A DNA stretch of 64,000 bases, taken from NCBI GenBank assembly GCA_964016885.1, contig OZ024742.1, forward strand, positions 147,808,001 through 147,872,000, read 5' to 3'. Position 1 is the first letter of the stretch. Each line of letters starts with the position of its first letter. Shown here one piece after another: positions 10,208 through 61,766 of the stretch. A model generated the notes under the pieces. That model saw only the letters and a program-made list of their open reading frames with translations, ran no database searches and was not told where the DNA came from. This stretch comes from Eledone cirrhosa. Lineage: Eukaryota. A program made the translations under genes and the position numbers.

Positions 10208-10208
10208 C

Positions 10209-10239
<31 letters not shown>

Positions 10240-18283: not shown

Positions 18284-18486
18284 ATATAAATATATGTATA
18301 TATATATATAAATAAATGTATATCATCATCATCATCATCGTTTAACGTCTATCTTCCATGCTAGCATGGGTTTAGATGGGCCATATATATGCCACATTTA
18401 TATATATATATGTATATATATATATATAAATGTGTGTGTGTATATATATAATGTGCACTTTATTTTATGTCTTGCTGCCCTTGTAG

Positions 18487-36873: not shown

Positions 36874-36971
36874 TTATCCTTGATTTTTTCTACATCTTTT
36901 TCTTCATCATCTAAAAATTTCTGTAATAAGCCTTTTAATACAGCCTCGGGTAATGCTATTAATTGCTCTAC
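36874..36971 (-). CDS. RASSF2: RASSF2/4-like exon (SARAH domain)
   Basis: VEQLIALPEAVLKGLLQKFLDDEEKDVEKIKDK, comparable to the RASSF2 [26 protein letters not shown] exon; donor AA|GTAAGT; 98 nt, phase 0-2. Confidence 0.85.
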
Positions 36972-38659
36972 CTTAAGAGATGAAAACAAGATATGGTTAA
37001 TATAAAAAAAAAAAACAACAAATCATTTCTTCAGTTTCAAATTAAGAGCAACATAAAAGAATGTTAACATTTAGACCTTTTCATACCAACCTGCTTGAAA
37101 CCATCCCTGGTTCTATGACAATAAAAATGTGTTTGAAAGTGTTCAAGTTTGAATATAAACCTTTCAATATTTTTTCTAAGAACATTTTCTTAAACTATGG
37201 ACTAAACACCAACTTAATAGTGAGAATGTTTGCGAATGTTTTGATAGTTCTAAATATAAGAGGAAATTGAATACTGTGGTGATAGCTACATCTATGTAAC
37301 TGCAGTAATAGAATGTTCAGCAATAAGTGTTCACTATGTGAATCTCAATTGAAAAGGTAAAAATATATTTGAAGGTAACTGATAAGTTTACAAAGAAATT
37401 GAACAAATTTGAAAATTTGATATTTGTGAAAATAGCCAGATGTCACAATAAAAGCAAATAAATTTAAAGACAGTTTGTCAAACAAGATAATTTTTTTTTA
37501 ACTATGCTATCATGAGTTCGATTCCTGGTCCTGGAGAGAGGTGACTGGCATATTACTGCCTTTTATTTTATCAATCATAAAGGTAGATTGGCAGAATTGG
37601 AAGAGTGCCAAACAAGCTTCGAGTTCAAGTCACTCCATGGTCATATTTGCCTATTATTCTACAATAAAATGAAGCACTAGTCAACTATACCACTCCTCAG
37701 AAATCTCTGGCCTTATTTCAATGTTAGAAAGCATATCTTTTATCAATCCTGGAGTAAGGAAAAATAAAGTGAAATTTGTAAAATTTGAACTGAGAACAGG
37801 AGTACTGAACTAGCAGCTATATAACAGCCATTGAAGTATCAACTCAGCCATCTCTAAAGTATATAGAAACAACATTAAATACTACAATTCCTTTAATATG
37901 GAACTCATTCTTGTCTAATTACAAGAATAATGACTACAAAAACATAACCTGCTGGCCCAGTGTTCCAATCCCAATGATATTTGACTATATCCTACCAGAG
38001 TTCTTTGATAAGGCATTGCCATAATTTTTTGTCAAGTTGGAACATTTATTATTATTGGTTTAATTACTATTTTACTGGTTTTAGTTATTAGACTACAACC
38101 CTAGTATTTATTCTATCAATCTCTAGTTGTTGAACTTCTAAATTACAAGATACAAACAAAGGGTAAATACCCAGACACAGATACACACACATATATGATG
38201 GGCTTCCATGAGTTTGTCCAAATTTCATTCACAAGGTATTGGTCAACCCAAATAAGTAGAAGACACTTGCTCAAGGCACTGCACAGTAGGACTGAGTCTA
38301 AAACCTTGTGCTTCTGAAGTGAACTTCTTAACCAAACGGTCATGTATGTCCCAATATGTGCACGCATAAAAAGGGGGCCAGAGTTTAATGGTTCAGACAA
38401 ACTATTGATTTCTTGCTTTAAGACAGCATTTTAATCTAAAACAACTCAAATTTAAATGTTATAGAAATCAACAAAAGTTGTACATTAGTTGTCTTCAGTT
38501 TGAGAGAGAGATGAGAAATAGAAAGAAAAAGAGAGTCATGCAAAATCAGTAAATCTTTCACATGCTTTTATAATTTATTAGATTGATTATATATATATAT
38601 ATATATAAAGGATTATGTAATTAGAGTCAACAATTTCTAACAAACGTGATTAGTTAGAA

Positions 38660-38990
38660 CTATTCCAATCCAACCCTTTTCCTGTCTGTTGGAGGAACCT
38701 CTCGCTGGTTGACCTTGACCACTTCTGTTTAGTTTTGGCCATGTCAGGGGTATAGCCATACTCACCATGCTTGGCTAATTAAGGGTTGGTGGAACTATTT
38801 AACCCATAGTTGAGGTGGATGGCCATTGACTGAGGAGTTTATCCACCCTTTTAACAGCTCGTTTTCCATGCTGCTGGGGTTCCACTCACCCTCATCCCCA
38901 GAGCAGGGCCTGGTAGGAGAGCTAGTTTAATCGCCAACCACTGGACCACAAAGTAGGTTGTACTAGGCAGAAGCCGGACCTGACATTCAG
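38660..38990 (-). mobile_element. Probable LINE 5'-UTR-like fragment (GC-richer island)
   Basis: Composition shift only; no ORF. Confidence 0.3.
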
Positions 38991-41657
38991 TAGTTAATAA
39001 TTAGCTGAAGTCTTTAAAAAGTTTATTGATAGTAGTTAGTGAAAATTAAAAATAAGAATTTTTAGATTTTAAAAACATTAAGATTAGCTTTAGATAGCTA
39101 TCTGTCGCACAAAAAGAAAAAAAAAAAAATATATAAACAGGTAGCTATTAAAAAAGCCATTTATTAGAAGCATTTATTCAGAACATGAAGTCAAAACAAG
39201 AATGTCACATACAACTTCTAGCAGCTGGAAGGGGAGAGAAGGATGTGAAGTTTATTAACTGTGTTACACTATTAAATTAAACGGTAGACTTTAGAAAACT
39301 TTATTTCAATAAAATAGGATGAATATATATAACATATTCATAAGACATTCTTGTTTTGACAGATCACAACCAGAAGAGATTAAAAAGCTTATTTTTATTT
39401 GCTGTTATGTCTAAGCCAGAGCATGAAAAAATGACCAGACAGCAGCAAGCAGCTGTTTTCCTTAGAGTGGCTCAAAGAACAATTACAGAGGAGGAAAGAT
39501 ATATCAGTTGGTTAGAAAAGGAAATGAAGAAATTAATATTGTTAAAATAGTATATAAGTTATTAACCACTCTAATGGAAACAAACTTTGATAGCAATGCT
39601 GTGGTGTAGAAAAATATTCTAATGCTACATAGTAGTAAGAACTGAAACCAGGATTAGAGCATTGCAGAATAAAATTGCTCAGTTTACTAACGATATTGAT
39701 TTCAAAAGATCCTTTAGTTACAGCTTCCACAGTACGCTGGGCCTAATGAACAAAAAAAAAAAGAAAAGAAAAAAAAAAAAAAAAAAAAAAAGGACAACAT
39801 TTAACAAAACTCTTTTTACTCAAATGGCATTATTTATGTAGCACAGTTTTCAGAATGGGGGATTCTCCAACACATTGTCTTAATCTGTGGCTGGTGAGAG
39901 GAAACAAAAAACAGGAATCCTAAATATTCTAATTTTTAGAAATTAGATAAGTTGGGAGTTCATAATAAATATATCATATCAAGAATTTATGAGAAAATAT
40001 ACAGTTAATATATTATGTTATAACTCTGTTGTTTTACTTCCATTTCTCTTATGCTTGTATTGGAGTGTAGATTGATCACTTGTTTTGAGTTGCTAGATTG
40101 GCTCCCTGCATGTAGCCTTGACTACATCATTTTCTTGGGCATTTTCCCTTTTAAGGTTACATATTCTTGAAAATTATTGGAGCAGATGATTTTAACATTA
40201 AACTCTTAATAATACAATCGGTGTAGTACTTATTTTCTGCTGTCCAGTGGTTAAGAATCTCATTATTACAATTAAGTATACAATATATTGCAATGGAAAG
40301 AACTAGTTTAATAATAAAATTATTGGAATTTTAATGAAAACTGCTATAGTTCTATACTTCTCTCAATTGGTAAATCAAAGAATCACAGTTCAATAGTGTT
40401 ATGAACCTAGTATCAGCTATTAGCTTATTTTATATCATATTTTTTGTACAATAGCATTGATTGTTACAGGTAACCACCGAGACAATCAGTGGTTCACTGC
40501 ATTTATGATAATCAGAGCAGCAAATCAAGCCTTTGTAACTTAGACAAAACAAAAACAAGGTTCAAAAACTCAGGTTTATAAGTTTTCTCACCTGTCTTAT
40601 ATCTTTGGCAATATATATATATATATCAGTGTGTGTCATAAGAAGCAACTAAAAGCATTGGTGTCAGTCACAAAGGGTATTCAGTATTGCCTCATGTTCC
40701 GTTTAACCCATGACACAATGGAAACGTCAACATAAAAAATGAAGATATATATATAATCATTGTTTTTCTATCTGCTTTTCCATGCAGGAATAGATTGGAT
40801 GAGACTGAGGTAGTTTTCTATGGTTAAATATCTTTTCTGATTCCAACTTGTACTTGTTTTAAAACATGGTATATAGTCCACTGATATTCATCTTGTTGAA
40901 ATGCTGAGCTGTGGGACATTGGCTACCTAAGAAGTTTTATGGCAAAGACAAGCACACACACACCCATTAGACTTCCATAGTTTCTGTTTACAAAATTTCA
41001 CTTATAAGGTATTGGTCAATTCAACGCTATAGTAGAATGCACAATGGGACTGAACCTGGAACCATGTTAATCACACAGCCATGCAATATAAAGCCAGTTC
41101 TTTATAGAATACTTTTATAATCTTCTCAATAATTGGAAGTGGATCACATGAATTTTATTGTATATTTGTTTGAACATGACCAGGATTATATGTAGATTGT
41201 AGACTAACCAGAAGAAAACCACTGCTTAACTTGAAACTTCTAGTCAGCAGAATATATAGATGAAGGAGTCTGTATAAGGTTAACCCTTTACATTACTCTA
41301 TATTTCCTATTGAATTTTTGTGGTAAAGGCTTTATCTTATATAATCATGTCACATAATACTGAAGCTACAAGATTTTGATGTTATTTATTTTGAAAACAA
41401 TACCTAAACATCTATATGAGCGACTAGTTATGGCCGGTTTAAATGCTAAAGGGTTAAGGTAAGAGTGATACAACAATACCTAGAGTAGTAACACATTTGA
41501 AATCTGGTGAATTATATATTGTATATTCTTTTATTTGTTTCAGTCATTAAGCTGCATCATGCCAGGGCAACGTCTTCAAGGGATTTAGTTGATTATATCG
41601 AACCTAGTACTTACTTAAAAAAAACAAAAAACACACACAAAAGTATTCTGTACTTAC

Positions 41658-41827
41658 TTCAGTTGGTAAATAACAGGTCTTCTCTTCTATTGGTTCAACT
41701 TCTTCAGGAACAACTATTGAGCTTACATAATCTTTCTCCCGTATGAAGATTTTGGCATTAGTTTCGTCAGCACCTAGTCTTAGACGGACTTCTAAAGGGA
41801 TCTCATCAATTCTAATTTCCCTTTCAC
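41658..41827 (-). CDS. RASSF2: RASSF2/4-like exon (RA domain end)
   Basis: (G)EREIRIDEIPLEVRLRLGADETNAKIFIREKD...YLPTE; donor GAA|GTAAGT; phase 1-0. Confidence 0.88.
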
Positions 41828-42490
41828 CTATGTAAAAAAAAAAAAAAATATATATATATATAAATTTACTTAAAATGATATTCAGACTAGTGTATTCACT
41901 TTGATTGATATAGTAACAATGTTTCAGCCATGGTACCCTCTGGCTATCTTTAGTCGAGGAGGAGCAGCACAAAGCTTGTCTCTCTGCTTTTTTGGCTCTA
42001 CCCTATAATTCACCACCACATCATTTTTTGTCTTGATGTCGCAGACCTAGTTCGTGGTGTTCAGTAGGTTGTCTCAGAAATTTTCATTCCCTCTACGTTA
42101 CAGTTTTCCTGTTCTTACTGTCGTATGCATCAAGTAAGATTTCTCAGAATTTGTTGTCAGCTGAGGTTTTTTTAGAGACTAACAAATCCGGAAAAGGACA
42201 TGGATGCTAAGTTTGTCAGGTATATCCGATTTGGCATCTGGTCAAAATGCTTGCCACAGAATTGACTCCCCAAAAGGCACCCAAAGGAGCTAGTGAAATT
42301 TGAATCCAGAATTAAGTCATCTCACCTATACACTAACCCACTGTTCTTGACCTTGCAGGATTTGAACTTAGAGCAAAGAGAGCTAGTACAAATACTGCAA
42401 TTATTCAATATTCTAACAACTGTGCCAATTTGATGTCTAAATGTAATTATATGTATAAGACAAATTTTGGTATTAACTAACTGCACTCAC

Positions 42491-42542
42491 CTTCAGCTTC
42501 TGTGACAACATATAGAGAAAATTCATCAGCATCATTCTCAAC
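42491..42542 (-). CDS. RASSF2: RASSF2/4-like exon (RA domain)
   Basis: VENDADEFSLYVVTEAE+G, comparable to IENSAEEFALYVVHTSG; AG acceptor and GTGAGT donor; 52 nt. Confidence 0.9.
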
Positions 42543-43167
42543 CTATAAAAGACATTATAATAGTAATAATAGGAAATAGAAGCTACCAGATCATTAGAAT
42601 ATCAAATATAGTTCCCAATAGAGAAAAATTTTGGTTGTAATATAGCTCCTCTTAGAGATAAATATAGCTTGTAATATAGTTCTTAGAGATAAATATAAAA
42701 GAAGAACTATATTAGCTACCCTAATAATAATTTATATAAATAACTAATATAGTCAGTTGGTTGGGATAGTTAATATTGCTCTAGATCACTTAATACCATT
42801 ATATGAGCCAAAGAGGGAGCCTCTACATGGTCACTCAACCAGCTAAAAACAGTAGCCATAACTCCATCAAACCACTCTCTACTGTCTTAAAAAAAGGTAA
42901 GATATATTGGGTAATGTAGCTTTTCATATAACAAAAGATGGGATGGTCATGACTAGAATGCTTTTGACTACAGGTTAGCACAATCAGAGCTTATCTGTGA
43001 GCTAAACAACAAATATTAAAACCAAAGAAATTATAATTTTCCTATCAACCATTGTAATCAGTAAAATGAAGGTAAAGCACAGAGTTTCGTAAAGGTATTA
43101 GTTGAGGGGTAGAAGGAGAGAATCATAGGCAGTTTCTTTCATTTAAAATATGGTAATAAAAGGGTTA

Positions 43168-43560
43168 ATCATCATCATTATCGTCATCTTCCACGCTAGC
43201 ATGGGTTAGACGGGAGTTGTCCTAATTGGGAGCAAGGTTGGTTGGGTGATTGGGTCTTGCTCGTATAATACTATCTGGCAGGTTTTCTACGGCAGGATGC
43301 CGTTCCTAACACCAACCACATTTACAGTGTGGACTGGGAATTTTTTACTGTGTTACCTACACGGCTACATTACAGCGTGGACTGTGTTTTTTTGTTGTGA
43401 CACCTACACGATCTCGATCTCATTATTTCATTAATTTGGACTGGATGTTGTGATACCAACTTTACAGAGAAAGAGTGGTGTTGGTGGTAGTGGGAGGATA
43501 GATTAGGGGTAGTGGGTTGGGGGTGTATATTTGGTTAAGCGTTGCCTACTGACTGCATAA
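43168..43560 (-). mobile_element. RTE 3' UTR fragment
   Basis: Homologous to 59310-59680 in reverse orientation. Confidence 0.75.
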
Positions 43561-44702
43561 ATATTTCTACATATATACTAAATGTAAATAGCATTAGCTA
43601 GAATATAAACTGTAATTTAACTGTTAAAATAAGAGGCGATGGAGCCTACAAAAAAAAATTTAGGTTTGTGTCAAATGCAGAACTTTAGAAATGAATTAGT
43701 ATTTTTATGTGGCTGCCAATTCATTCACTTTGTTTAAAAGATCAGTCTTAGCTGTCTTTCAAAGTAATCAGCTTAGCTTAGTTTACTTTGTCTTTCTAAT
43801 TCTCCACACCTGTCACTATCACTTAAGATGTTCAGGTGTTTAATTTAAAATCAACAAGCTTAGTTTGACAAGTTTCACTGGAACATAGCCCACTCTGAAT
43901 TAGAAATCAGACCCAGCTTATTCTCAAAGTAGCAGACCTAACTCAGCACCAAATTGTACCTGGTTCTATTATTCAAAACCGTTTGTTTTAAATTGTTTAT
44001 ACTTCATCTATAAATGATTTTAGGTAAAAAGCTTTATTAGAGCACCAGCTGAATAATGAGGTTAGTTCATCATCCAGTTTAACACTGCGACATAACATCA
44101 TAGGTCTTTTAGGAGAGTTTACTCTTGCAAGTATTTAGCATGTCTCTGGTTTGAAGATTAACTCTTTCCCTTTCTTTCACTACACTACAATGTTCATACC
44201 CTTGAACAAATGAAATAATTTGAGTTTGCAGTTTAGCAAGCTGACAAACCAAAAATGAGTACAATATCTAAACTATAATAAAGTAAGAAGCGCAGGACTG
44301 CGTACGGTTTATAATTTTTTTTATCCCATTAGTAAAATAAGTTGGATTACTTTGAATAAATAATGAATAAATATTACATAATTTATCTACTAAATTTCGT
44401 GGCTGTTGATTAAATATATTTTGTTTATTTAAAGATTCACTTCTTTAAAATTTCTGAAATGTCAACACTTCCAGTTGACCATCGCTTAAATAAATATACT
44501 AATTTTCCCCCAATGCAGTTTATATATAATATCGTCTTTTTTAATGCATCATTAATTACGTTACTGATTAAATAAGACAGTGTAACGCAGTCTTCGTTTA
44601 ATTTCTATGTATTATATATATTGTCAATTACGATTTTATTTGATGTATCATATCTACATGTATATATACTTGCGTATAATATCAATATACACACTACACA
44701 TT

Positions 44703-44740
44703 CTAGCAGAAAACCACCCGAAGGGTGGTTTTTCTGCTAG
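44703..44740. repeat. 38-bp hairpin ending in CTAG (Helitron-terminus-like)
   Basis: CTAGCAGAAAACCACCC-GAA-GGGTGGTTTTTCTGCTAG followed by T. Confidence 0.7.
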
Positions 44741-44808
44741 TGTACCTAAAGATACAGCAACGGTCTATTAGTTCTTGAGAGAGAGAAGTATATATTATTG
44801 AGACAAAC

Positions 44809-44910
44809 CTTGAATTTTTCGAGCAATGTTTTTATAACGAGCGGAACAGTCATTGTGCTGTTTACCGTAACACTAGTACAACTGCCGATCACTGGGGTGA
44901 AAACACGAGT
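44809..44910 (-). CDS. RASSF2: RASSF2/4-like exon (RA domain start)
   Basis: TRVFTPVIGSCTSVTVNSTMTVPLVIKTLLEKFK, comparable to [34 protein letters not shown]; 102 nt, phase 0-0. Confidence 0.92.
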
Positions 44911-45044
44911 CTAGAGAAAGGAAGAAAAAAACAAAAACAAAAAAAAACGCACAATTACTGTAGTGTGGAGTTTGTGCTCATGTGTCAGAAATAATAATAA
45001 TAATAATAATAAAAACTGACTGAAACCAACAATGGATACAAATA

Positions 45045-45120
45045 CAGGGTGTCCCTAAAAATGTATACATACTTCAACATCACTGGTAATAGTGTGTATA
45101 CATTTTTTGGGGACACCCTG
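45045..45120. mobile_element. 76-bp Tc1/mariner-type MITE
   Basis: TA|CAGGGTGTCCCTAAAAATGTATACA...TGTATACATTTTTTGGGGACACCCTG|TA; TA target duplication. Confidence 0.85.
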
Positions 45121-46222
45121 TATATATAAATTATATATATATATATATTAGCAATGCTGAGATACAACATATAATTATTGCAGATAAAACATTAACAATT
45201 TTTAAAAAGCTATAAAATATAACAAAAAGATTTATGGAACAGTATTGCTGAGTTTCAGTCGTCATACTTATCAATTAGTCACATCAATTTCTTTATTTAT
45301 TTATAGCTCACACTTAAACAGGTTTGTATAACTAGCTTCCCATGAGGTTGCATCTCATTGGAGGTTTCTTGGGTGTTTTATGATAACCCCTCCTTCCAGT
45401 CCTACCACGAAAAACAAGAAGAACACAACTTTTCCATCGATCAATGAATTGAACCCACAACATTCATGATCAAGAGGCCAACAGCCTTGCTTCGCGTGTT
45501 CACACTAACTACTTTCTATAAATGGAAGAGACTATGTAGCCGGTTCAGGTAAAATAGACTCCCAGGCTATTTAGCCGATAGAGTGTCAGGCACCATGTAT
45601 TGCAGCCCAAGTTAAGACAATTTGAAATCTTTTCTATCATCAATTGTTAAAATAAAAGTTAAATCATTTAGACGTCATCTTATAATTCTGCTTGTGTTTT
45701 ATCCATTCGTAACGTATGTTACGCTTTAGTTACACACACATCTGAGTTCCATGGCATAAAATGTTTAGCAGAAAGTCAAATATTTTCGAAATTAAGAATT
45801 TTAGCAGTAAGTCACGACCTGTGGTCTAAAACACTATTGTTTAGTGGTAAAATAAGCTTCCGGGAACCCGGTTAGAGTAGCGACCCTTTAGCGTTTACCG
45901 GTAAAATAAGCTTAAAAAGCATGTTTGTCTATTTTGCCGGGATCGACTTTATAAATTATCTACTTTATGAACAAATACATTTTATAATTCGAAATTATCT
46001 AAAGCTTTCATGGTACCAGTGTCGTGTGTTTGTCAAAATTGTAGTTAATCTCATTTAATAGTGTATTAGTGAACAGCTTACAGTAGTCAATGAAACACTA
46101 TGACTATGGCCGTCTTGCAGACGCTATCGCTAACTAGAGAATGTCTTATCCTGTTAAAAACTTTAAAAAAAATGAAAATTAAGTGGAAGGGAGAAGTGCC
46201 TGTGGAATGCTCAGACACTTAC

Positions 46223-46243
46223 ATCAAAATAAAAGACGGACAT
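46223..46243 (-). CDS. Candidate alternative first coding exon of the RASSF gene (MSVFYFD)
   Basis: ATG TCC GTC TTT TAT TTT GAT|GTAAGT consensus donor in phase 0, in a CpG-rich patch upstream of the 44910 acceptor. Confidence 0.45.
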
Positions 46244-46980
46244 ATTTAAATCACACGTCACGCGGGGCGCTGGAGTTTCTAATAGTTTTTGAACCAAGTC
46301 AACACACGTAGCGAGCCTACGACGTTGGAATAACAAAGCACTTTTGTGGGCAAGGCAAGTTGCCAACGATGATGACAACTTCGTTGTCGGAGATCTAGCT
46401 TCCCCAAACGTCTCGAGCGCTAAAGACAGGAAAACTTTGTCGATAATTCCTGGTGTTTAAGATTTTTTTTTATCTCATACGGCTATGAATGTAGTGCCCG
46501 TTAAATTTACCGCGGCATCGTGAGCTGTTTTGAACATGGACACAGCGTAGCATCAGTAAACAAAACAAAGCAAAAAGTAAATGTTCACACCAGTTTGTAT
46601 AGAAATCAACAGAACAAGAAGTGAAGTGAAATAACCCAGCGAGGAATTGAACCTGCATTACAAACTTGAATTGCTGGCAGTCTATCAACACTTTACAAAG
46701 AAAAAAAATAGTGAATAAATGAATAATAAGCATTTTATGGCCGTCTCCCCAGCTAAATCAAGAGTTAGTGTTGCATCATGGGATCCTTCATGAAGCTATT
46801 TCACGGCCGACCTTCTCTGGTACCAGCGCTTTTAGTTTCTTCTTGCGACACGATACAGTACCTATAGTACATAAATATCAACAATATTTGTTTCAAATCA
46901 AGCTTTCTGTGGAATTTGACTGAAAAATATATACATAAAAAGAATTTAAAACAACATTTCTAAAAGAAAAAGAATCTCAC

Positions 46981-47163
46981 ATCATAATTGTAAATATGTC
47001 CGTTTATAGAAGCTCGTTTCCACTTGCTTGGTCGGTCAGCTCTGTATGCAACTGTGTTGGATTTGCGAATATTTCGACGTCGAACAACACCATCTAAATT
47101 GGGTACAATCAAACTATCATCCATGCCATATTTTGGGAGAGTTGGTTGTAGAGATTGTACTGC
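46981..47163 (-). CDS. RASSF2: RASSF2/4-like exon
   Basis: AVQSLQ...RRRNIRKSNT...KRASINGHIYNYD (SINGH.YN is the RASSF2/4/6 signature); acceptor CTTGCAG, donor GTGAGA; 183 nt, phase 0-0. Confidence 0.92.
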
Positions 47164-48083
47164 CTGCAAGAAGAAACAAATCGAAATTTTACAAAATAGT
47201 TTTTTACTTTTTAAATCGAACCGTAGATTTTATTAAAAGTGTCAATATGACGTTTGTGGTGATTGGCGTGCACACACAGCCAATGGGCTTCATTATAGTT
47301 TCCACCTACCAAATCCACTCGCAAAGGCATTAGTCGAAGACACTTGCCCAGAGTGCCAACGAGTGGTACAGAACCGACGGTGCTTCTCCAGAACAATCTC
47401 ACCCAAATGATAAATTAATGTAAATACAATCGGAACTAATTTATTCCAAATTAGAGTTATGGTTAGGATTAATTCAATTCTGTAATTGACACAAGATTGA
47501 CAGTCATACAAACAATCCCCAATTTGGAATTAGTTCAGATCAACTTTCACCTTAATTTGAATAAGTTCAGATTATATTATTGTCTTATTTATATTAATAT
47601 ATAATGGTGGGGTGGGACTATTCTGGAGAAGCGCTCAACCGACCGTAGAACAACAAAAATTGATGCTTCCACCTTTCTTCATGATTCTGACCAACCAGAG
47701 CTGATCTTAGACTAAACAATAACTACAGCAACAGAAAAAAAAATAACAAAAGGAATAACGAAATGTTTTTTTTATGTATATATATATGTATATATATATT
47801 TGTTATTTACGAAAAGTGAGTCAAAAGTTAGACGGCTGTTTTCCACCAATTCGCTGTACATTATTCTTTTTACTCTACAGTAATAGTCACAGTAATAAAT
47901 AGTGGATGCAGGGTTTTGATAATGGTGATCACAACAATGATAATTTGAGCAAGGATTGCTAGGGCAATTATGCTATACTGGTGTCATGTGGATATCAGGC
48001 TCTAGTGGTAGGATTCTGTCCGTAATTTTCGTTTTGCTGGAACTGTTTGAAAGTAGCGGAGCATTCAGACGGCAGTGGCAGTT

Positions 48084-48503
48084 TCACATTGCTAAGTGTG
48101 CTAGCATAGCAGCCATCTTCGTCTGTTCCGTCGCTAGCACAGCTTGCTCGGTCGCACATACGGCCTGTTTAGCAGCTGCACTTTTTTGGTGTTGGCCTGC
48201 ACAAGGCAAGCAACCACATTGGGTGTGGCAGTGACTGTGATGGTGCGGAGCAACATGACAGCAATGACCGTGGCAGTGACCGTGGCAGTGACCGTGGCAG
48301 TGTCCGTGACAGTGACCGTGTCCATGACAGTGACCGTGTCCATGACAGTGACCGTGTCCATGACAGTGACCGTGGCAGTGACCGTGTCCGTGGCAGTGAC
48401 CGTGTCCGTGGCAGTGACCGTGACAGTGTCCGTGGCAGTGTCCGTGGCAATGACCATGGGTGTGCATAATAATGGAATCCGTTATAGAATCACAACAGCT
48501 CAT
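48084..48503 (-). CDS. 139-aa His/Gly/Cys-repeat protein (putative metal-binding), intronic to the RASSF gene
   Basis: AAACATGA start; 68-residue HGHC/HGHGHC tract whose nucleotide variation is confined to synonymous third positions (CAC/CAT, GGA/GGT, TGC/TGT); non-repetitive Cys/His-rich flanks. Confidence 0.6.
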   Translation of the reverse strand: MSCCDSITDSIIMHTHGHCHGHCHGHCHGHCHGHGHCHGHGHCHGHCHGHGHCHGHGHCHGHGHCHGHCHGHCHGHCHGHCCHVAPHHHSHCHTQCGCLPCAGQHQKSAAAKQAVCATEQAVLATEQTKMAAMLAHLAM

Positions 48504-48743
48504 GTTTCTGCTAAATCATACAAAAATTTCAAAATAGATATTGTATTTTATCCTGCGAATTGACACAATTGCGTTTGTGTAAACCAGACTTTATTTTAAC
48601 AATCTCCTTTCAGACTGCTAAAGCCTCACCAAAGTCTCAACAAACAGCCTTATCTAGTAGCTTCAAGTTGTTAAATGAAAAGCGGATAACGCTTGATGCG
48701 TTTCCACTAGATATTAAATTTTCAAAAATTACGAGGCAGACCA

Positions 48744-48757
48744 TTATGACGTCATAA
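48744..48757. promoter_or_regulatory. Full palindromic CRE/ATF site
   Basis: TTATGACGTCATAA (core TGACGTCA at 48747-48754), ~240 bp upstream of the 48503 ATG. Confidence 0.4.
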
Positions 48758-49372
48758 AACGGACAACAATATACTTTGACCGTTGTAGAGAGATGAAACT
48801 GTTGTTCTCTCTCACGAAATTAGAATTGTTTGAAAGAAGAAAAAAAGGTTAACTTGAGATAGATATAACTATCGTTTTTCAATTAGAAGACTCCGTTGTG
48901 AAAATTATGAATAAAAATTGAACCCATAGCAAAATCTAGTAATTAATTCGCATATTTTCCATACTTTGACCCCTCCCCCTCCATTTTGTGAGTATGTCTA
49001 GTATATACTGTCGGAAATATGTCCTGGCTTTTAAACCCCACCATACCTTCGTCAATGGATGATAACAATTAAATTACTTTTGTACAGAATCTAGGAAGAG
49101 TCTTATTTTAAATATAGGGTCGTAGTTTTGATCGCTACGCACAGGTGTACTATTCGAGTTTCGTATGTGAAAGAAGTGGCAATTTTAGATCATCTGTACT
49201 CCAGCAGTTAGTGACTACAAGCAGCTCCCTAATGTCAATTTTAATGTTTAGGGAAGGGTATGCCTAGTTTTCCTGTAGGTATCCAAGAAACCATAAGCGA
49301 TTTTCTTTTACACTCTGCGTAATGATGTTTCCACAATTATTAATACCCGGAACATTTCAACTGGAAAATAAT

Positions 49373-49556
49373 TGTATCTACTTTTGGCACAAGGCCAGCA
49401 ATTATCCCAGTGTATTACTGGTACTTTATTTTATCGACCTCGTAAGGATGAAAGGCAAAGTTAACCTCGGCGGGGTTTGAACTCATAATGGCAAGGGCCG
49501 TAACTCTATACGTCAAAGCATGGCGCCCGACCCTCTACCGATACTGCCAATCCACC
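49373..49556 (-). mobile_element. Meta-type SINE
   Basis: Reverse-complement homolog of 27929-28100; TSD GGAAAATAAT at 49363-49372 and 49557-49566. Confidence 0.8.
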
Positions 49557-49616
49557 GGAAAATAATGATAATCAACAGTTTCTGTATTACCAGAAAAACT
49601 GATTAGGTCTTGTCTA

Positions 49617-49657
<41 letters not shown>

Positions 49658-51762
49658 AAACTTTCAAGAGAAATTTAAAATATTCACTTCATTCCTCTTG
49701 TGGGAAAATATAACTTTCATTATCAATATCAGTTATATTATTGGAGTCATTGCTATCGCTATTCGTAATTAAGGTATCTAATGTAAAATCCACTACTTAG
49801 TTTTGCCACCTGTTTACGCCTGCCTTTACTGCTTCTTTCATAAATTCTTCAAATCTAGTCGCTACCCGTGAATGTGAAGCTGGTATCCATTTTTAACATT
49901 TTTTTTTTTTATTACGACGTAGAAAAAATATCAAAAAATTCAGGTATAACAAATTTAACGTTAAAAAATGTCGCCCGTATTGGTAACGAAATGGATAGAT
50001 AGCAACGCTGAGTGACATCTGAACGATAGTAATTCCAAATTCACAATTGATATTTAAAATATGAATCAAATATCAAACAATAATTGAAAATTGTTGGCTA
50101 TTACTGAGAAGCTAAATTGATTTAGAAAAAAATTTAGCTAATTATTTATAATCTATATGATATATTGAATGTAAAGGAAATGAGTGTGATGGAGTTTATC
50201 TAATAGTTATGTAATAACAACAGTGTATGTAAATGGTGACACAATCATGCTGCGAAAGTTTATGAAGAAAAGAAAGAAAAAAAGACCCCAAAGAGCTGAT
50301 TCTCAGAGACCAAGGCCATAATCCTCCCCTTGCAATCCCAGGTTTCTTCACTTTGAATTTCCATCAAGTGATTTTTCACACAAGTCCTATATTAATATGC
50401 ATGCATGGTCCCGTAACTACCGAGGGAGTCGTATAGGGGTGTATTGAGATACGGGCATTTAAAAATCTGGTGGAGCCCATGTCTCCAGGTATTCATATGC
50501 AGCAGGTTTCTTCCTGAGAAGGATAGAGAGTGAGAGAAAGGAAGTGAGAAAGATATATCGAGGAAGAATCTACTCCAATACTTGACTGGTACTTTTTTTT
50601 ATCGACCTCGAATGAATGAAAGGCAAAGTTGACCTCAGCTAGCTTTGAACTCAGAGATTCGGAAAGAATACGGCAAGTCAGTCTATCTGACGTTCTAACA
50701 ACTCTGTCAATTCGTCGTCCTTATAACATTAACGAGCCAAACCTTAATAATTGTATAGTCCTATCCAATACAGGATTTTCTTTTTCGGATGAGAGGGGGC
50801 GGGCTGTTAAATTCGTGATAATGAATTGCTAGTCTTATTGATAGAAATTAAAATCAACATGTTTAAGTGATATATTTTAATATAAGTAGGTTTTCAGGTT
50901 AGTAACACTAATACAGAAAGTCGGAACAAATACAATAAAAAACCTATTAAAAAGGGTTGAGTCAATGAGTGAATCCCTATGTAGTCACTCCACCTGCTAG
51001 AAATAACAGTCAAGTTTCCTAAAAAAAAAAAATCACTACTTGCTTAAAAAAAAAAAAGATAGGATGTTTACGGCCGAAATATCTACTCCACATGGGACTA
51101 AACTACATCTATTGATATTTATTTTGTCAAAATGATTAACTTTTAATATCCTATACATCATGAAACCACATTAGCTATACATTCTCGAAATTACTGCATC
51201 AATGGCATGGCCTCAGTCAGTCGGCTGGAACACGTAATACGAAAAATTAGAATCTTTCGTTTATTTCAATTTTTCACAATATGACCAATAAATATACTAT
51301 AAACATTTGAATCATCAAACTCTAAATCATTAGTTAAGAGCTAAATCCCGATGTAAATACCTTTAGAAAGACAAATATGATACAGTATCATATTACACTA
51401 TAAAATAACATACGGTATACTATTCATTCTTCTTAATAATTACTCATTGTTTTTACAAGTTCAGAGGAGGTTTAATATGACAGAAAATGTCTGGAGTCTT
51501 GCATACTTGCTAAAAGGATTGAAATAATATTAGTAGTTATCTTTACCTCACTACATAAGTAGTTCTAACTAGATTATGGACCCCCATTAAAGTAAACTTT
51601 AGATCAACGTTGCCCAAGCTAATGTATACTTTGTTTAAAAGGACGCAGAGTGAATCAAACGTGATGTGAACTATCACTAAGAGTGCACATAAAATGTGAA
51701 GAATAATGACCGTGATAAAAGGTGACTGGACAACTAGGTAGGTGGCTACAGTACTAAAGTAC

Positions 51763-51897
51763 CTCATACTCAAAGTCACAGGTAATAGATTTAACACGTA
51801 AACCTAGTAGTATTGAGTCAGACTTGGAATCAGAAAAATCATTATCATCATAATCTTCATCATCATCATCATAAATGTCATCAAACAAATCAAACAG
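51763..51897 (-). CDS. Candidate acidic cassette exon of the RASSF gene
   Basis: Strong acceptor CCTTTTCTTTTCAG; LFDLFDDIYDDDDEDYDDNDFSDSKSDSILLGLRVKSITCDFEYE; donor GAG|GTACTT; 135 nt, phase 0-0. Confidence 0.45.
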
Positions 51898-51924
51898 CTG
51901 AAAAGAAAAGGAGCAACATGGAAA

Positions 51925-52465
51925 TATAGGTGGTTTTACAGAAGGTAGCACGGTAATATAGATAGGTTTACAGGGGGTAGCATGGTAATATTTATAGGTT
52001 TACAGGGAGTGATATGGTAATATAAACAAGTTTATTGGTAATATAAACAAGTACAGGGAGGTTTACAGGATGTAACATGATAATATAGAGAGGTTTATAG
52101 GGTAAAACATGACTGTAGATAGGTTTACAGGGTGTAACATTGAAATATAGAGGTTTATAGAGTGCAGCATTGTAATATTGAGGTTCATAGGGTGTAACTT
52201 GGTTATATAGTTATGTTACATGCTATAAAACCTCTATCAACATCATCATCATCGTTTAACGTCTCTCTTCCATGCTAGCATGGGTTTAGATGGGAATTGT
52301 CCCACTTGAGGCAAGATTGGTCATCTCGCTCATATAGGACTGCGTCAGGTTTTCTACGGCTGGATGCCCTTCCTAACACCAACCACTATATTACTGTTAT
52401 TCCCTGTAACGGCAATATAGAACTTTACAGAGTATAACATGGTACTATAGAAGTTTACAGGGAAA
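51925..52465. repeat. ~30-bp minisatellite interrupted by an RTE-tail insertion (~52238-52388)
   Basis: Repeating ATATAGRNAGGTTTACAGGG..TAACATGGTA units. Confidence 0.7.
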
Positions 52466-52924
52466 ATTATAAGCTAGTTTACATGAAAATATAGCTACAT
52501 TCAGGTGAGTGAAACTTCTCCAATCATACTAACCGAACAAGGTGATCAACCTTGACAATGTCCCTGTAGAGTGCAGGAAAGTATGTAAGGGAGATAAGAT
52601 CTTAGTCCATCTGAGAGATCAGTGGCTCAAATTAAGCACTGATTTGGTCTGTGACAGCCCATCTAACACTTGCTTGCAAGAAAAACAGATGTTAAATGAT
52701 ATTGATGATAGTGGCATGATAAAATGCACTCAGACTATACAGTAAAGTGATCCATGAAAGGAATGTCTGTTATCCAGTTTTAACGGGAAGAGGAAATCTG
52801 ATTATATTGACCCCAGTACTTGACTGGTGCTAATTTTATCAACCTTGGAAGGTTATAACTAGATGCCAAAAAGGCCTTAGTCCAATGCTCTAATCATTGT
52901 GACAGTTCACCACCATAATAATAA

Positions 52925-53085
52925 TAATGGTTTCTGATTTAGGCGCAAGACCAACAATTTTGGAGGAGAGGAAAGTCATTAAATCAACCCCAGTGCATTA
53001 CTGGTACTTTATTTTATCAACTCAATAAGGATGAAAGGCAAAGCTAACAACCTTGATGGGATTTGAACTCAGAATGTAAAGGGAT
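52925..53085 (-). mobile_element. Meta-type SINE
   Basis: CCCAGTGCATTACTGGTACTTTATTTTATC...GGATGAAAGGCAAAG...TTTGAACTC. Confidence 0.7.
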
Positions 53086-53741
53086 ACATTCAGGCTTTAG
53101 GTAGAGGGGCCTGTAGGAAAAATATATTGCAGTCGCCATTTCATGCAATAAATAAAAATTGGCAATGTACCTGTGTTGGGATGGGCACACAAAGATTGGA
53201 ACCTGGGAATATCACAACACATACCAGTAAGGAACAGGAACTAATGGAGGAGGCTAGATGCTACCAGCTGGATATAGTTAGGGTTTCTCAACAAAGTTCC
53301 ATCGCTTTGGGTCTGTAAATTTGGATGGAGGTTGGAAACTTCACTATTCAGGTGTGGTGCCAGAAATGACTGCACAGGCGGGAGTGAGGATATTCACAAG
53401 CCCCCAGCTGTCAGAATGTGTTATGAACTGGATACCATTAAGAGGGAAGATTTGTCTCTTGAAGCTTAGAATAAAAGATAGGTCTCTGTGAGTGGTGCAA
53501 GTTTATGCACCAAACAAGGAATCCAAATACAGATCCTTCCTTGGTGAAGTCACTACAGCATTAGATGTAGTTCAAACTGAGTCATATATACTAATGGGAG
53601 ACTTCAAAGTACATGTTGACATTGACCACTGGAAAGGAGTGATTGGAAGGAACAATACAAATGGAGAGGCTTTATTAGACTCCTGTTCAATGGACTCTAT
53701 TGTGAACACCTTATTGCAGCACAGAGACATCCATAAATAGA

Positions 53742-56700
53742 CTAGGAAATTCTGGAGAGTCTGAAAAAAAAAATCTGGACACTGAGTGACAATGCCAAAG
53801 ATAAAGACAAATTCACCTCATGCTGCCGAACGAAAAAGCAAGGACTCCTCCTCTTTGTTTCGGCCGCGGATGGCCAACATAACCCCAACCCCAGCCCCAC
53901 CGTTCCCACCCACCAAATGCAATCCAAAACTTCAGAGTTGGTACCATGAATGTAGGCACCTTAAAAGGTCGCTCTAACGAGGTTGTAGAAATGCTTGAAC
54001 GTAAGGAGGTTGATGGTTGCTGTATCCAAGAGACCAGGTGGAGGGGTGGGTCTGCTAGATTCATTGTGGGTAAAAAACGATGCTATAAGCTTTTCTGGGT
54101 GGGAAATGACAATGGGCTGGGTGAGGTAGGAATCATGTTAGCAGAAAAATGGGTAGATAAGATAATTAACGTAAATAGAGTGAACGACAGAATAATTAAA
54201 ATAAGACTTGTCCTAAATAGAACTACTGTGACAGTAATATCTGCGTACGCACCCCAATCTGGACTGCCTGGCGTTATAAAAGACAGATTCTATGAGACAT
54301 TGATGCTCACGACCTCCCAAATAACCGACAGTGACTACATAATTATTGCTGGCGACCTAAATGGTCACGTTGGACAACATTGTGACGGCTATGACGGAAT
54401 CCATGGAGGCTATGGGTTTGGTACTAGAAATGAGGAAGGCGCCAGAATCCTGGAATTCTGTGACGCAAATAACCTAACTGTCTGTAACACTAACTTCAAA
54501 AAACGAGACAATCACTTGATCGCCTATAGATCAGGGGAACACGCCAGTCAGATAGATTATATCCTTACCAGAAGACGTGATAGAGTCATCATCATCATCA
54601 TCACCGTTTTACGTCCGTTCTTCCACGCTAGCATGGGTTAGACGGGTTGTCCTGTTGTGGGCAGTGTCTGGTCGGCTGACCATGCCTTGCTCATACAGGA
54701 ACTGATCTGGCTTGATTTCTACAGCTGGATGCCCTTCCTAACACCAACCTCATTTACAGTGAGTGCTGGGTGCTTTTTCGTGGCGCCTACACGTCCACTT
54801 TACAGTGTGGGCTGGGTGCTTTTTTGCCGTGGCACCTCCACGGCCACCTTGCGGTGGGGAGGGGGGGGGGCATATTGTTTATATGCTTCAGCATGTACCC
54901 ATGGGAGGTCGGGTACCCTGTATTACTGCGTGACGCCAGAAGTCACGGTCGTGTGTCATTGACTTTGAGAGGTGTAGTTGGGTAAGGTCGGCTTTTATCA
55001 CCTCATCCCAAGTCATCTTGGGTCTCCCCACTCCGCGGTTTCCATCAACTTCTAGTGCTCTGCACCTTTTTATGCAGCTGTCATCCTTCATACGCATCAC
55101 ATGTCCATACCAGCGTAACCGCCTCTCCTGCACGCAGCATTTGATTCCTCTTATGCTCAGTCTCTCTCTCAATTCCTTTATGCTTTGTTGTTCACGTATA
55201 TTACTGTTACACATCCATCGGAGCATGCAGGCTTCGTTTCTCTCTAATCTACGTAAGCGCCCAGGTCTCACTACCATGCAACATCGCTGTTCGGATACAC
55301 GCATCATACAGTCTGCCTTTCATTCTGAGGGAGAAGCCTTTTGCAGCTAGCAGTGGTAGTAGTTCCCTAAACTTCTTCCATCCCGTTCTTACCCTAGTTA
55401 TTGTACTTTCTGAGCACCCACCTCCGTTGCTAATTCGGTCACCTAGGTAGCAGAAGCTGTCTACTGTTTCTACAGGGCCCTCCCAGAGATTGGTGGTACT
55501 TGTTTCCTGTGGCTGTTTGCTTGCTGTTTCAGCACAGCTGCTGCATGTGAATCCTACATTCTTAATTAAGCTTCCTGAGATCCCGCTACATCTCTTGTGT
55601 ACCCATTGTTTGCATTTGGGGCAGAGAATGGAGTTCCTACCTACACCTTTCCTACATACTGAGCAAGGCCATTTCCCTGAGGGGATCTGGGTTCTGTTTT
55701 CTCGTCTACTTACAAGGACCTTAGTCTTTGTCATGTTGACTTTGAGGCCCTTTCTCTCTAGTCCCTGCTTCCAGGTTTGGAATTTATTCTCTAGTTCTAC
55801 CATAGATTCAGCTATGAGTGCGAGGTCATCAGCATACAGGAGTTCCCATGGGCATCCGGTCTTAAACTCTTCCGTTATTGCCTGCAGGACTATGATGAAC
55901 AGGAGAGGGCTAAGAACAGAGCCCTGGTGGACCCCAACCTGTACGCTAAATTCCTCGCTATACTCATTGCCAATCCTAACTTTGCTGACTGCTCCCCTAT
56001 ACATGGCTTGTACCGCTTTCACAAGCCATTCATCTACTCCTAGTTTTCTAAGAGCCCACCAGATTACTGCACGTGGAACTCTGTCAAAGGCTTTCTCAAG
56101 GTCAACAAATGCCAAGTAGAGTGGCTTACTTTTAGCTAGGTACTTTTCCTGTAATTGCCTCACAAGGAAGAGGGCATCAGTGGTGCCTTTCCCTGGTACA
56201 AACCCAAATTGCATCTCGTCTATATTCACCCGGTCCCTAATCAGCTGTGCTATAACTCTTTCTGTTACTTTCATGACCTGGTCCATCAACTTTATACCTC
56301 TATAGTTTCCTCTATCTAGTGCATCGCCTTTACCTTTGTAGCAGTTGACAATGATGCTACTGCACCAATCTTTTGGTATGGCCCCCTCTAGTATTACCTG
56401 GTTAACGATACGTGTGGTTATAGTGTGACCTACAGACCCAGATGCCTTCAGCATCTCGGCAGCTATACCCGATGGACCGGTTGCCTTCCCTATCTTCATA
56501 TCTCTGATTGCCTTACTTACTACGCTGCCGCTGACTTGTACTGCTGGTCCCTCTATAGGGTCTACGTGGGGTAGGGTCTCTTCTTCCCATGCATTCTCCT
56601 CATTTAGTAATCTATCATAATGACTCTTCCATGCATCTTTCTTCTCAGCACTTGTGAGGGCAAGCTCACCTTTATCATTCCGGATACACTTCTCTCCAAT

Positions 56701-59680
56701 GACATCACAACTATCTCTGACACACTGCCTCGCAATCTTGAATACCTCCTGTTTCTGGTCCTCACGTTGTAAAACATGCTTGAATTTTCTATCCTCTGCT
56801 TCCCTCCTAGCTAAGGATACTTGTCGCCTAGCTTCCCTCTTGGTCTCTATGTAATGTACCCTGCTCCCCCCGTTCTTCCATTCTTTCCATGCCTGTCTCT
56901 TAGCCTTGACTGCTTCAGTGTCTGTCGTAAACACTAAATCCCTCCCCCATGAAGAATGCACCTCCCAACATATACTCATAGTCAGTGACCTCGTAGTCAG
57001 GACAAGACGTACTCGACAACAGAGGAGGACTATCCTCAGGAGAAAAATATGGAAGCTAAAGGACCCCACAGCCAGTAATAAATTTAAAAGCATATTACTT
57101 GATGCTTTTGACAGTAAGGAAGAGCAATTAGAGTCGTACAATATAGAGGAACAGTGGGAATTCCTGAAAGCTAACTTGCTGAAGGCGGCAGATGACGTCT
57201 GTGGCTGGAGCAGACCTATAGGCAGGAGGAGAGTAACGTGGTGGTGGAACAGTAAGGTGGAGGAGTCAATTAAGGCCAAAAAGCAGGCTTGGAAAGTATG
57301 GCGAGATGGAGGAAGTAGAGAAGACTATCAAGTGGCCAGGAGGGAAGCTAGGAGACAAGTGTACTTCGCAAGAAGGGAAGCAGAGGAAAGAAAGTTCAAG
57401 CATGTTCTACAACGCGAGGACCAAAAACGTGAGGTGTTCAGGATTGCTAGGCAATGTGTCAAGGAAAACAGTGATATTGTCGGGGAGAAGTGTGTCCTAA
57501 ATGATGATGGTGTACTTGCCATCACTGACGCTGATAAGAAGGTAGCCTGGAAGTGTCACTACGAAAGGCTACTAAATGAGGAGAATAAATGGGAGAAAGA
57601 CAGTCTCCCCAACATCGATCCAATAGAGGGACCAGCAGTGCTAGTTGAAGGTAGTATAATAAGAAAGGCAATCAAAGATATGAAGGCGGGTAAGGCGGCT
57701 GGGCCTTCGGAAATACTTGCTGAAATGCTGAAAGCATCTGGAACGGTGGGACACACTATGGTCACCCGGATAGTAAACCAAGTCATACAGAATGGGGTCG
57801 TTCCGAAGGACTGGCGTAGCAGCATCATCATTAACTGCTACAAGGGTAAAGGAGATGCCCTAGATAGGGGTAACTATAGAGGTGTTAAATTAATCGACCA
57901 GGTCATGAAGGTCACTGAAAAAGTAATAGCGCAACTAATCAGAGAGCGAATTGATCTAGATGAAATGCAGTTCGGGTTTGTGTCAGGTAAAAGTACCACA
58001 TACGCTCTTTTCATTGTACGACAACTACAGGAGAAGTACCTAACTAAAAGTAAACCCCTATACTTAGCTTTTGTTGACTTGGAGAAAGCCTTTGACAGAG
58101 TCCCCTGTTCCATTATCTGATGGGCTCTTAGAAAACTAGGTGTTGATGAATGGCTTGCGAGAGCTATACAAGCCATGTATAAAGAAACAGTCAGCAAGGT
58201 TAGAATTAACAACGAATATAGTGAAGAGTTTAGCGTAAAGGTTGGTGTTCATCAGGGCTCCGTCCTTAGTCCCCTCCTATTTATTATTGCCCTTCAGGCT
58301 ATAACAGAGGAGTTCAAGACCGGCTGCCCATGGGAACTCCTATACGCAGATGATCTAATGCTCATAGCTGAATCAATGGCCGAACTAGAGAAGAAATTCC
58401 AAATATGGAAGCATGGCCTAGAATCAAAAGGCCTTAAAATTAACTTGTCTAAGACTAAAGTTCTAGTTTGTAGGAAGGAAAATAGGGCACCAGTCCCATC
58501 TGGGAAATGGCCATGCTCAGTGTGTAGGAAAGGAGTAGGCAGAAACTCCATTTTATGTCCCAAATGCAAAGTATGGGTGCATAAAAGATGTAGTGGGATC
58601 ACAGGTAAGCTAACTAAGAATATAGATTTTATATGTGGCCGGTGCTCTGGTGCAATAAGTAGCAGCAAGTGCCCACAGAATACTAGCTCATTCCATTGCA
58701 CAGATGGTTCTATAGAAATAGTGGACACCTTCCGTTACCTGGGTGACAAAATCAGCAGTGGTGGCGGCTGCTCCGAAAGTACAGAAGCTAGAGTCAGAAC
58801 TGGATGGAAAAAGTTCAGAGAGCTTATACCACTATTGGCCGCTAAAGGGTTCTCACTAAAAATGGAAGGCAGGCTGTATGATGCCTGCATACGAACAGCA
58901 ATATTGCATGGCAGTGAGACCTGGGCATTGTATGCAGAGGATATACGCAGACTGGAGAGGAACGAAGCATGCATGCTCTGCTGGATGTGTAATAGTAATA
59001 TACGTGAACGGCAAAGCATAAATGAACTAAGGGAGAAATTAGGAATAAGAGGGATCAGATGTTGTTTACTCGAGAGAAGACTACGTTGGTACGGTCACGT
59101 GATGCGCATGAAAGATGACAGTTGTATAAAAAAGTGCAGGGCGATAAAAATAGATGGTAGCCACGGAGTAGGCAGACCCAGAAAAACCTGGGACGACTTG
59201 CTAAATTCCGACCTCACACACTTACTCCTCTCCAAGACAATGTCACTGGACCGAGATCTTTGGCGATACACAGTAATACAGAAGACTCGCCTTGCCTAAG
59301 TACAAAGCGAAACCTACTACAGTCAGTAGGCACCTCTAACAAAAATACACCCCGGCCCCACTACCCCCACCCCATCCACACCACCCCTTCCAATGTAAAG
59401 TTATGTTGGTACCACAGCATCCAGTCCGAAACAAATGAGGGTGTGTAGGTGTCACGACAAAAAAACACACAGTCCATGCTGTAATGTGGCCGTGTAGGTA
59501 ACACGGTAAAAACCTCCCAGTCCACGCTGTAAACGTGGTTGGTGTTAGGAAGGGCATCCAGCCGTAGAAAACCCGCCAGACAGTCCTATACGAGCAAGAC
59601 AACCAATCTTGCCTCAAGTGGGAAAATTCCCGTCCAAATCCATGCTAGCGTGGAAGATGGACGTTAAACGATGATGATGA
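53742..59680 (+). mobile_element. Near full-length RTE LINE (APE + RT + PHD-like finger), interrupted at 54586/56917
   Basis: APE ORF from 53946 (NVGTL, IQETRW, SAYAPQ, GDLNGHVG, QIDYIL) rejoins 56920-59299 in frame; single TGA at 58118-58120 where sister copies have TGG; 3' UTR with (GAT)n tail. Confidence 0.92.
54587..56916 (-). mobile_element. 5'-truncated RTE LINE of a sister subfamily inserted antisense
   Basis: RT ORF (AFVDLEKAFD, HQGSVLSP, YADD, C4HC3 finger); (GAT)n tail at 54587; AGT duplicated at 54584-54586 and 56917-56919. Confidence 0.92.
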
Positions 59681-61690: not shown

Positions 61691-61734
61691 ATTAAGAATG
61701 TAATGTTTTAACTTTTCTTTCTATTTGTTAGGTT

Positions 61735-61766
<32 letters not shown>

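Follow-up and report, generated by a model that had tools for sequence, protein, structure and literature searches.

A His/Cys-rich retrogene with a CRE-like upstream palindrome, truncated from a Cys-Pro repeat family, in the octopod Eledone cirrhosa

Introduction

The sperm proteins SMCP and ODF1 carry C-X-P repeats and bind zinc, and to our knowledge neither contains a histidine tract; ODF1 (ODF1/HSPB10) is also a small heat-shock protein. Metallothioneins, by comparison, consist of about 30% cysteine. The Cys/Pro-rich SMCP is described as forming the disulfide-linked sperm mitochondrial capsule (PMC9956255, PMC8700991), and Odf1 and Smcp are described as CREM-dependent, the CRE consensus bound by CREM being TGACGTCA (PMC10454534). 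The Mst(3)CGP genes are testis-specific, contain CGP repeats and give axoneme defects upon deletion (PMC10645079), and their products are presented as spermatocyte-transcribed components of the sperm tail (PMC10645079, PMC3469439). Furthermore, a survey of mammalian retrocopies indicates that inheritance of the parental promoter occurs but is rare, at ~3% of expressed copies (PMC4772013).

The locus described here, a small gene for a His/Cys-rich protein of the cephalopod Eledone cirrhosa, is a retrogene by test and lies outside the Mst(3)CGP, ODF1 and metallothionein families by the features tested. No paper on this HGHC family or on coarse fibres of cephalopod sperm was found in the open-access literature searched.

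The open reading frame and its repeat tract

The window, that is, the whole 64,000-nucleotide stretch analysed, contains at 48503-48084 on the minus strand an ORF of 139 amino acids with 42 His, 22 Cys and 21 Gly, which was re-derived as an earlier note on this DNA had described it. The protein consists of 46% His+Cys, with Cys at 16%, and has no aromatic residue. The ATG and an N-terminal stretch of 15 residues conserved in the family comparison (48459..48503, minus strand) are followed by the tract, residues 16-81 (48261..48458, minus strand), which is predicted to be disordered without metal and comprises 14 units, nine HGHC and five HGHGHC. The earlier description of a tract made purely of these units is thus accurate, with the length corrected from 68 to 66 residues. 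The tract represents a homogenised form of the His/Gly/Cys region common to the sister copies. Across its 33 di-codons, positions 1, 2, 4 and 5 are invariant and variation occurs at third codon positions alone (CAC/CAT, GGA/GGT, TGC/TGT), as the earlier note had observed. Synonymy in all four variant classes has a chance probability of 0.0008-0.004, which rises to 0.005-0.023 when six frames are allowed for, so that this pattern is modest evidence when taken alone.

Both the Cys/His-rich motifs of the flanks and the 7-residue repeat at the C-terminus match the earlier description, and the latter belongs to a heptad run conserved in five copies. A hydrophobic N-terminal stretch was sought in the protein and none was found, with at most 5 hydrophobic residues in 15, in agreement with the view that it has no signal peptide. 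The ORF is covered at flank depth by overlapping short-read contigs with zero variants; these derive from the same sample, so they are not independent support, and no single one spans the whole repeat. The ORF is judged real and protein-coding.

The tract is also a 6/12/18-nt tandem repeat across which five of the six frames are open, as would be expected if the ORF were open only by chance within a fragment of a transposon or dispersed satellite. The earlier note had named such an origin as what would overturn its reading. However, only 10 loci were found and they match a spliced four-exon gene, the shared segment has no reverse transcriptase (RT) or transposase ORF, and dN/dS is far below 1 (see below), which makes this explanation scarcely credible.

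Parent gene and RNA-mediated origin

The presumed source of the window copy is a split gene, C4a, with four exons at G000:C4 375745731-6025, 375796949-8568, 375805684-5718 and 375809219 onward, pieces of which were located at L028:1997-3570, L033:1732-2026 and L034:4684-4718 and 8219-8360 (G000:C4 375.75-375.81 Mb). Its introns of 50,923, 7,115 and 3,500 nt all have GT-AG borders, and the first, 51-kb intron sits in the 5′ untranslated region. The 35-nt microexon was found by a search with the linkers of intronless copies, and the exon 3 donor and exon 4 acceptor are bridged by same-sample short-read contigs. When spliced, the parent encodes 583 amino acids (37% Pro, 31% Cys), consisting of the N-terminus, the His/Cys region, an Ala/Gln helix, ~380 residues of Cys-Pro repeats and a Cys/His C-terminus.

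In the window copy, all three parental introns are precisely absent. Junction 1 (48555..48571, minus strand), where the 50,923-nt intron is missing, has ~14 extra nt that are common to the intronless copies, and junctions 2 and 3 were placed by parent comparison at 48037/48036 and 48016/48015 on the same strand. With 12 nt required on each side, junctions 1, 2 and 3 are contiguous in 7/7, 6/7 and 7/7 intronless copies, respectively, the alignments of C9 and C4b being weaker. That these copies run straight across the spliced junctions shows an RNA-mediated origin. Moreover, the window copy lies on a different contig from the parent, with homology confined to 48846-47690. The copied 5′ region (48504..48889, minus strand) corresponds to parent exon 1 and the start of exon 2, parent homology beginning at 48846 and that of C1 and C9 at ~48889 and 48865, respectively; the copied 3′ region (47640..47879, minus strand) is common to parent exon 4 and the sister copies. 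A poly(A) tail and a target-site duplication were sought at the copy and none was found, the one 9-mer match falling within shared 3′ sequence, and the copies are old (dS ~0.9). We conclude that the window gene is almost certainly a processed retrocopy of the four-exon parent.

The identity of the donor is stated with more caution because C4a lacks 14-24 nt that every one of the seven intronless copies has at junction 1, and the flanks these copies have in common with one another are somewhat longer. A middle exon supplying these nucleotides was sought in parent intron 1 and was not found. It is therefore possible that the true donor gave rise to C4a or was a sister to it, or else that a retrocopy served as template for some of the copies.

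Two further observations concern the parent locus. Over parent exons 3-4 (L034:4677-5008 and 7559-8599) the short-read depth is 2-4 per contig (bins 3-6.5), whereas the same runs give 13-14 for the window copy; this difference could reflect heterozygosity, bias or a hemizygous region, depth being a poor measure. In addition, a GC-rich minisatellite of ~25 nt lies just within parent intron 2 (L028:3650-4600).

A dispersed family of copies

Searches of the organism's own genome covered 3.0 Gb in 1796 contigs. The protein search gave 92 matches, and among the best 10 loci plus one further match there were five relatives besides the window ORF; DNA searches placed the 5′ part at nine places, the 3′ part at eight matches and the helix at six. 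The family thereby comprises at least 10 loci: the window copy (on C3), C12, C5, C28, C9, C1, C4b, the split copy C4a, and relics on C2 and C4. At least seven are intact intronless copies on seven contigs, besides the two relics, and the sisters of the window copy lie on six other contigs or at distant places. The family loci have in common the N-terminus, the His/Gly/Cys region, ~260-340 nt before the ATG and the 3′ segment. Beyond these, C12 and C5 retain the helix with a CxP/CGP tail, C28 retains the helix alone, C9 retains a CGP tail and the C-terminus and is devoid of the helix, C1 retains only the C-terminus, and C4b has a frameshift ahead of the helix. The tails contain 10 CGP in C5, 7 CGP in C9, 26 CxP in C12, and 156 CxP including 46 CCP in the parent, and the window protein has no CGP and one CxP. 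The earlier picture of a lone microprotein is accordingly replaced: the discovery of the parent gene and the family shifts the reading from a stand-alone metallothionein-like microprotein to a truncated member of a family built from a His/Cys region, a helix and Cys-Pro repeats.

One relic, 5′-truncated, at L007:1500-1655 (G000:C2), ends at the deletion point of the window copy, which suggests that the window-type gene was itself re-copied. The other (L032:2424-2525 and ~4190-4230, G000:C4 71.48 Mb) has lost the ATG, and its remainder is broken by insertions that include RT-like fragments. The tree of eight copies is star-like with 0/5 branches supported, so the order of copying cannot be read from it. 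As a separate observation, open frames of great length (up to 3809 aa) are clustered at G000:C3:222.05-222.06 Mb and C28:56.46 Mb, with weak scores against the His/Cys repeat.

The tandem Cys/Pro tails, whose repeat length varies between copies, resemble those of keratin-associated and cornified-envelope proteins, and they are, together with the lack of a signal peptide, consistent with a functional retrogene for a cross-linked intracellular structural protein of a somatic tissue, such as skin, sucker, beak-forming or lens cells. Somatic structural genes of the keratin-associated type usually expand in tandem clusters, however, whereas the family copies are dispersed, and repeated heritable retroposition with a star-like burst demands abundant germline mRNA. 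We regard a somatic structural role as unlikely.

Truncation and purifying selection

The window copy lost the Cys-Pro tail, and its N-terminus, His/Cys tract and helix stayed in frame. At the deletion point (48084..48093, minus strand) the Cys-Pro tract of the parent is gone and the shifted frame gives a stop codon (48086-48084). Beyond it lies a decayed remnant of the parental C-terminal coding sequence, identified by parent comparison (47880..48083, minus strand), with 10 indels in 208 nt, nine of them frame-breaking, plus stops. The kept ORF, by contrast, has an intact frame over 417 nt: its indels measure 3 and 27 nt, apart from a compensating 2+2 pair that may be an alignment artefact, and there is no net frame-breaking change. 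Likewise, the homologous ATG opens an ORF of 139-242 aa in 7/7 full intronless copies.

The dN/dS ratio between window copy and parent is 0.16 (p=4e-5), taken over the 41 of 73 non-repeat codons that align and biased low because codon blocks were picked for alignability; it ranges from 0.05 to 0.30 in 10/10 pairs among five copies. For the branch leading to the window copy, values of 0.13 (pN) and 0.37 (pS) were obtained (p=0.006). The decayed remnant still has a dN/dS of 0.42, indicating that part of the selection signal is older than the truncation. In simulations, neutral survival of the ORF was 0.215 with substitutions only, and 0.022 to 0/5000 at indel rates of 0.01-0.043. Taken together, purifying selection, past or present, has very probably acted on the kept coding part, and the protein-level selection proposed from the repeat in the earlier note holds in the ORF frame, which is preserved beside the decayed former coding sequence.

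Whether conservation is historical bears on a further explanation, namely that a once-functional retrogene is now silent or decaying. It would fit the truncation by a frameshifting deletion, the existence of two family relics and the scarcity of informative recent changes, of which there are three on the window branch since the split from the C2 relic. That relic shares the deletion point and 12 changes with the window copy, and the unpolarised dN/dS between the two is 1.06. When changes in the helix since the split are polarised, however, the window copy has two replacements and the relic nine (p=0.03). This difference, the 417-nt frame intact next to a remnant with nine frame-breaking indels and stops, the perfect upstream palindrome described below and the absence of variants in the short-read contigs all argue against present silence, which we consider quite unlikely.

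The host RA-domain gene

A minus-strand host gene (36874..62707), identified by its exons and a Pfam RA match, contains the ORF in one of its internal introns, between coding exons at ~51.9 kb and 47.16 kb. The host exons lie at 62707-62534, 51897-~51763, 47163-46981, 44910-44809, ~42540-42490, 41826-41658 and 36967-36874, and the RA domain was matched at 44910-44809 (E 5.9e-5; one of five exons tested). The earlier note had named the host RASSF2/4; a minus-strand gene with an RA exon is indeed present, and we presume the name, as well as a SARAH-like exon at 36967-36874, from familiar motifs. Two coding exons of the host, at 62.7 and 51.9 kb, are upstream of the ORF and, in silico, are spliced in frame across it. 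Because the ORF is 3′ of host coding exons, the suggestion that it is a true uORF of the host fails. Coupling to a Hippo-pathway adaptor gene is likewise not supported, given the internal-intron position, the arrival as a retrocopy and the dispersal of the sister copies.

Recruitment by the host could take another form, in which the promoter of the copy and a donor at 48161 would yield a chimeric His/Cys-RA isoform, or a uORF or poison exon. Host and ORF are on the same strand, and a phase-0 donor-like hexamer (48156..48161, minus strand), created by substitutions on the window branch, would join the host RA exons in frame in silico. Such a candidate is nevertheless expected by chance, at 0.16 hexamers per 420 nt and 0.94 for looser donor patterns; its exonic side is weak, protein-level constraint persists 3′ of it, and the true uORF variant is ruled out by position, so host recruitment is highly improbable. 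The AG just before the ORF ATG was considered as a special host acceptor and rejected, being inherited from inside parent exon 2.

The remainder of the window holds several other features. The host exon at 51897-51760 (minus strand) includes a run rich in Asp, and its in-frame donor options number at least five, paired with tandem acceptors at 47163 and 47159. A short frame at 18459-18680 on the plus strand resembles an inositol polyphosphate kinase exon by its motif and would belong to a second gene. Two plus-strand ORFs with RT plus GIY-YIG-like motifs, at 4414-6253 and 12618-14621, the second a 668-aa open frame, are ones we take to resemble Penelope-type elements. LINE-type RT/endonuclease copies occur at 8656-10256 (minus), 53067-60486 (both strands) and 22183-23124 (minus), and the large intron of the host contains two nested LINE-type copies in head-to-head arrangement, with frames of 691 aa and 421+392 aa.

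The copied 5′ region and its CRE-like palindrome

The 5′ region shows a p-distance of 0.17-0.30 across 28 pairs, compared with synonymous values of 0.49-0.71, which amounts to roughly twofold higher conservation, a figure that the gapped alignment inflates. Its best-conserved 18-nt window (mean 0.96) is a CRE-like palindrome at 48742..48759 (minus strand), centred on TGACGTCA 255 nt (~260) ahead of the ATG. The palindrome is kept in 8/8 full copies (seven intronless and the parent) and is perfect in the window copy; the exact 18-mer occurs three times genome-wide, each time in the HGHC retrocopy family. A perfect TGACGTCA is retained in only 4/8 copies, the other four having an altered core, and the CpG of the palindrome is kept in 5/8, no better than six other CpGs (4-7/8). 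Contiguous homology starts at or slightly before the palindrome in four copies. If a CREB/CREM-type factor binds this site, each copy would bring its own promoter and need nothing from a host gene. The retrogenes of Carelli et al. 2016 are likewise processed copies whose putative promoter comes from the 5′ region of the parent; they make up ~3% there, whereas here 7/7 intact copies keep the element, each with a different subset of protein modules (PMC4772013).

The upstream sequence also bears on the possibility that the retrogene encodes a somatic metallothionein/Hpn-like metal buffer, for instance in the digestive gland or a copper-handling tissue. The 46% His+Cys content without aromatic residues, the missing signal peptide, the predicted disorder of the tract without metal and the purifying selection on the ORF are compatible with such a buffer, and metallothionein genes also give processed copies. 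On the other hand, no metal-response element was detected in the one-kb upstream regions of 8/8 copies, for which ~3 would be expected from the window background. Cys is only 16%, no metallothionein was matched by Pfam in seven family proteins, and the long Cys-Pro tails and helix of the parent and sisters are unlike metallothioneins. A metal buffer is fairly unlikely on this evidence.

Predicted structure and searches for relatives

An AlphaFold2 model from a four-sequence alignment shows one confident helix at residues 102-138 (48090..48200, minus strand), with block means of 82-94 starting at residue 111; confidence is low in the rest of the model. Gln-started heptads make up this helix in all five helix-bearing copies, and the hydrophobic period of the window helix is not clearly that of a coiled coil. 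The HGHC tract is predicted to be unstructured without metal, and metal binding, which the earlier note proposed, is plausible from a composition that includes 42 His and 22 Cys.

Word-index protein searches, which covered limited lengths only, gave no candidate for window residues 85-139, three matches of 8000 scored for alignment A1, all His-rich low complexity, and no real relative among three for C12 residues 95-146. HMMER against 1.84 billion representatives yielded 19 matches at E<=0.001, none below 1e-10, and the N-terminal or helix motif was seen in none of the 15 examined among these 19. Exact look-up retrieved 0/7 family proteins, ESM Atlas gave no usable match for two proteins, and Pfam gave nothing above the cut-off for seven, with one sub-threshold match. 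Only three His-rich chance matches were obtained from the PDB by sequence, none from Foldseek with a low-confidence model, and one chance match from Rfam, while 0 of 108, 472 and 599 pattern matches were confirmed in viral, prokaryote and metagenome contigs, respectively. The family thus appears to lack a homologue in the protein, family and structure libraries searched, although absence there is not proof of novelty. Annotation probably misses such genes, whose proteins are absent from the collections searched.

Comparison with known systems and proposed role

The family resembles Drosophila Mst(3)CGP (Mst84Da-d, Mst87F) as a small Cys-rich multigene family with CGP repeats in sisters C5 and C9. 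It differs in the added His/Gly/Cys tract and heptad helix and in dispersal by retroposition, and the repetitive Cys-Gly-Pro of that group does not occur in the window protein (0 CGP); the likeness is one of low-complexity composition. SMCP and ODF1 offer a parallel in their Cys/Pro-rich tails (the parent here has 31% Cys, 37% Pro and 46 CCP), again compositional, with no sequence match. Unlike ODF1, the seven family proteins have no small heat-shock (alpha-crystallin) domain by Pfam, and the model shows one helix only. Metallothioneins and Helicobacter Hpn are similarly small, His/Cys-dense, free of aromatics and of a signal peptide, and probably unstructured without metal. The family departs from them in having no Pfam match (0 metallothionein matches in seven proteins), no MRE, lower Cys (16%), a conserved helix and a 583-aa Cys-Pro ancestor. 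The CREM-dependent expression of Smcp and Odf1 parallels the CRE-like site found here (PMC10454534, PMC9956255, PMC8700991).

The reading that we tentatively favour, while holding it to be somewhat short of an even chance, is that the retrogene carries its own promoter, acts in the male germline and encodes a structural sperm protein of Zn/thiol-binding type, with expression, tissue and metal binding all inferred. A sperm role is favoured because heritable retrocopies require germline mRNA, because the sisters carry CGP/CCP tails like those of Mst(3)CGP and SMCP, and because the CRE fits. The likeness is weakened, since such low-complexity Cys/Pro composition is also common to keratin-associated and cornified-envelope proteins. 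A family mRNA was copied back into the genome with three introns removed and inserted into an intron of the RA-domain host, a gene unrelated to it. A CREB/CREM-type factor would bind the palindrome that lies 255 nt ahead of the ATG, and the copied 5′ region with its CRE likely drives transcription in male germ cells. The HGHC tract might then take up several Zn ions, shielding thiols during spermiogenesis before disulfide cross-linking, and, by prediction, the heptad helix would anchor the short protein on the long ones of parent type, either in accessory fibres of the flagellum or in the mitochondrial sheath. By analogy, the window protein may work like Mst(3)CGP or ODF1 proteins.

A broader proposal, possible but in our estimate doubtful, is that of a lineage-restricted family of sperm structural proteins spreading by retroposition with its own CRE promoter, the module subset differing per copy among a Zn-binding HGHC tract, an assembly helix, a Cys-Pro tail and a Cys/His C-terminus. 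The family would then be the third case, alongside flies and mammals, in which CGP/CCP sperm fibres under CRE control and protected by Zn were invented independently, and the window copy would be a tail-less Zn carrier capping fibres. If the sperm role is true, the family would provide candidate building blocks for the accessory fibres that, as we understand their anatomy, belong to cephalopod sperm, and would reveal convergence on CGP/CCP repeats and CRE control across three distant phyla. Moreover, one parent, seven live copies that differ in their module losses and two dead ones constitute a natural experiment on gene birth within a single genome.
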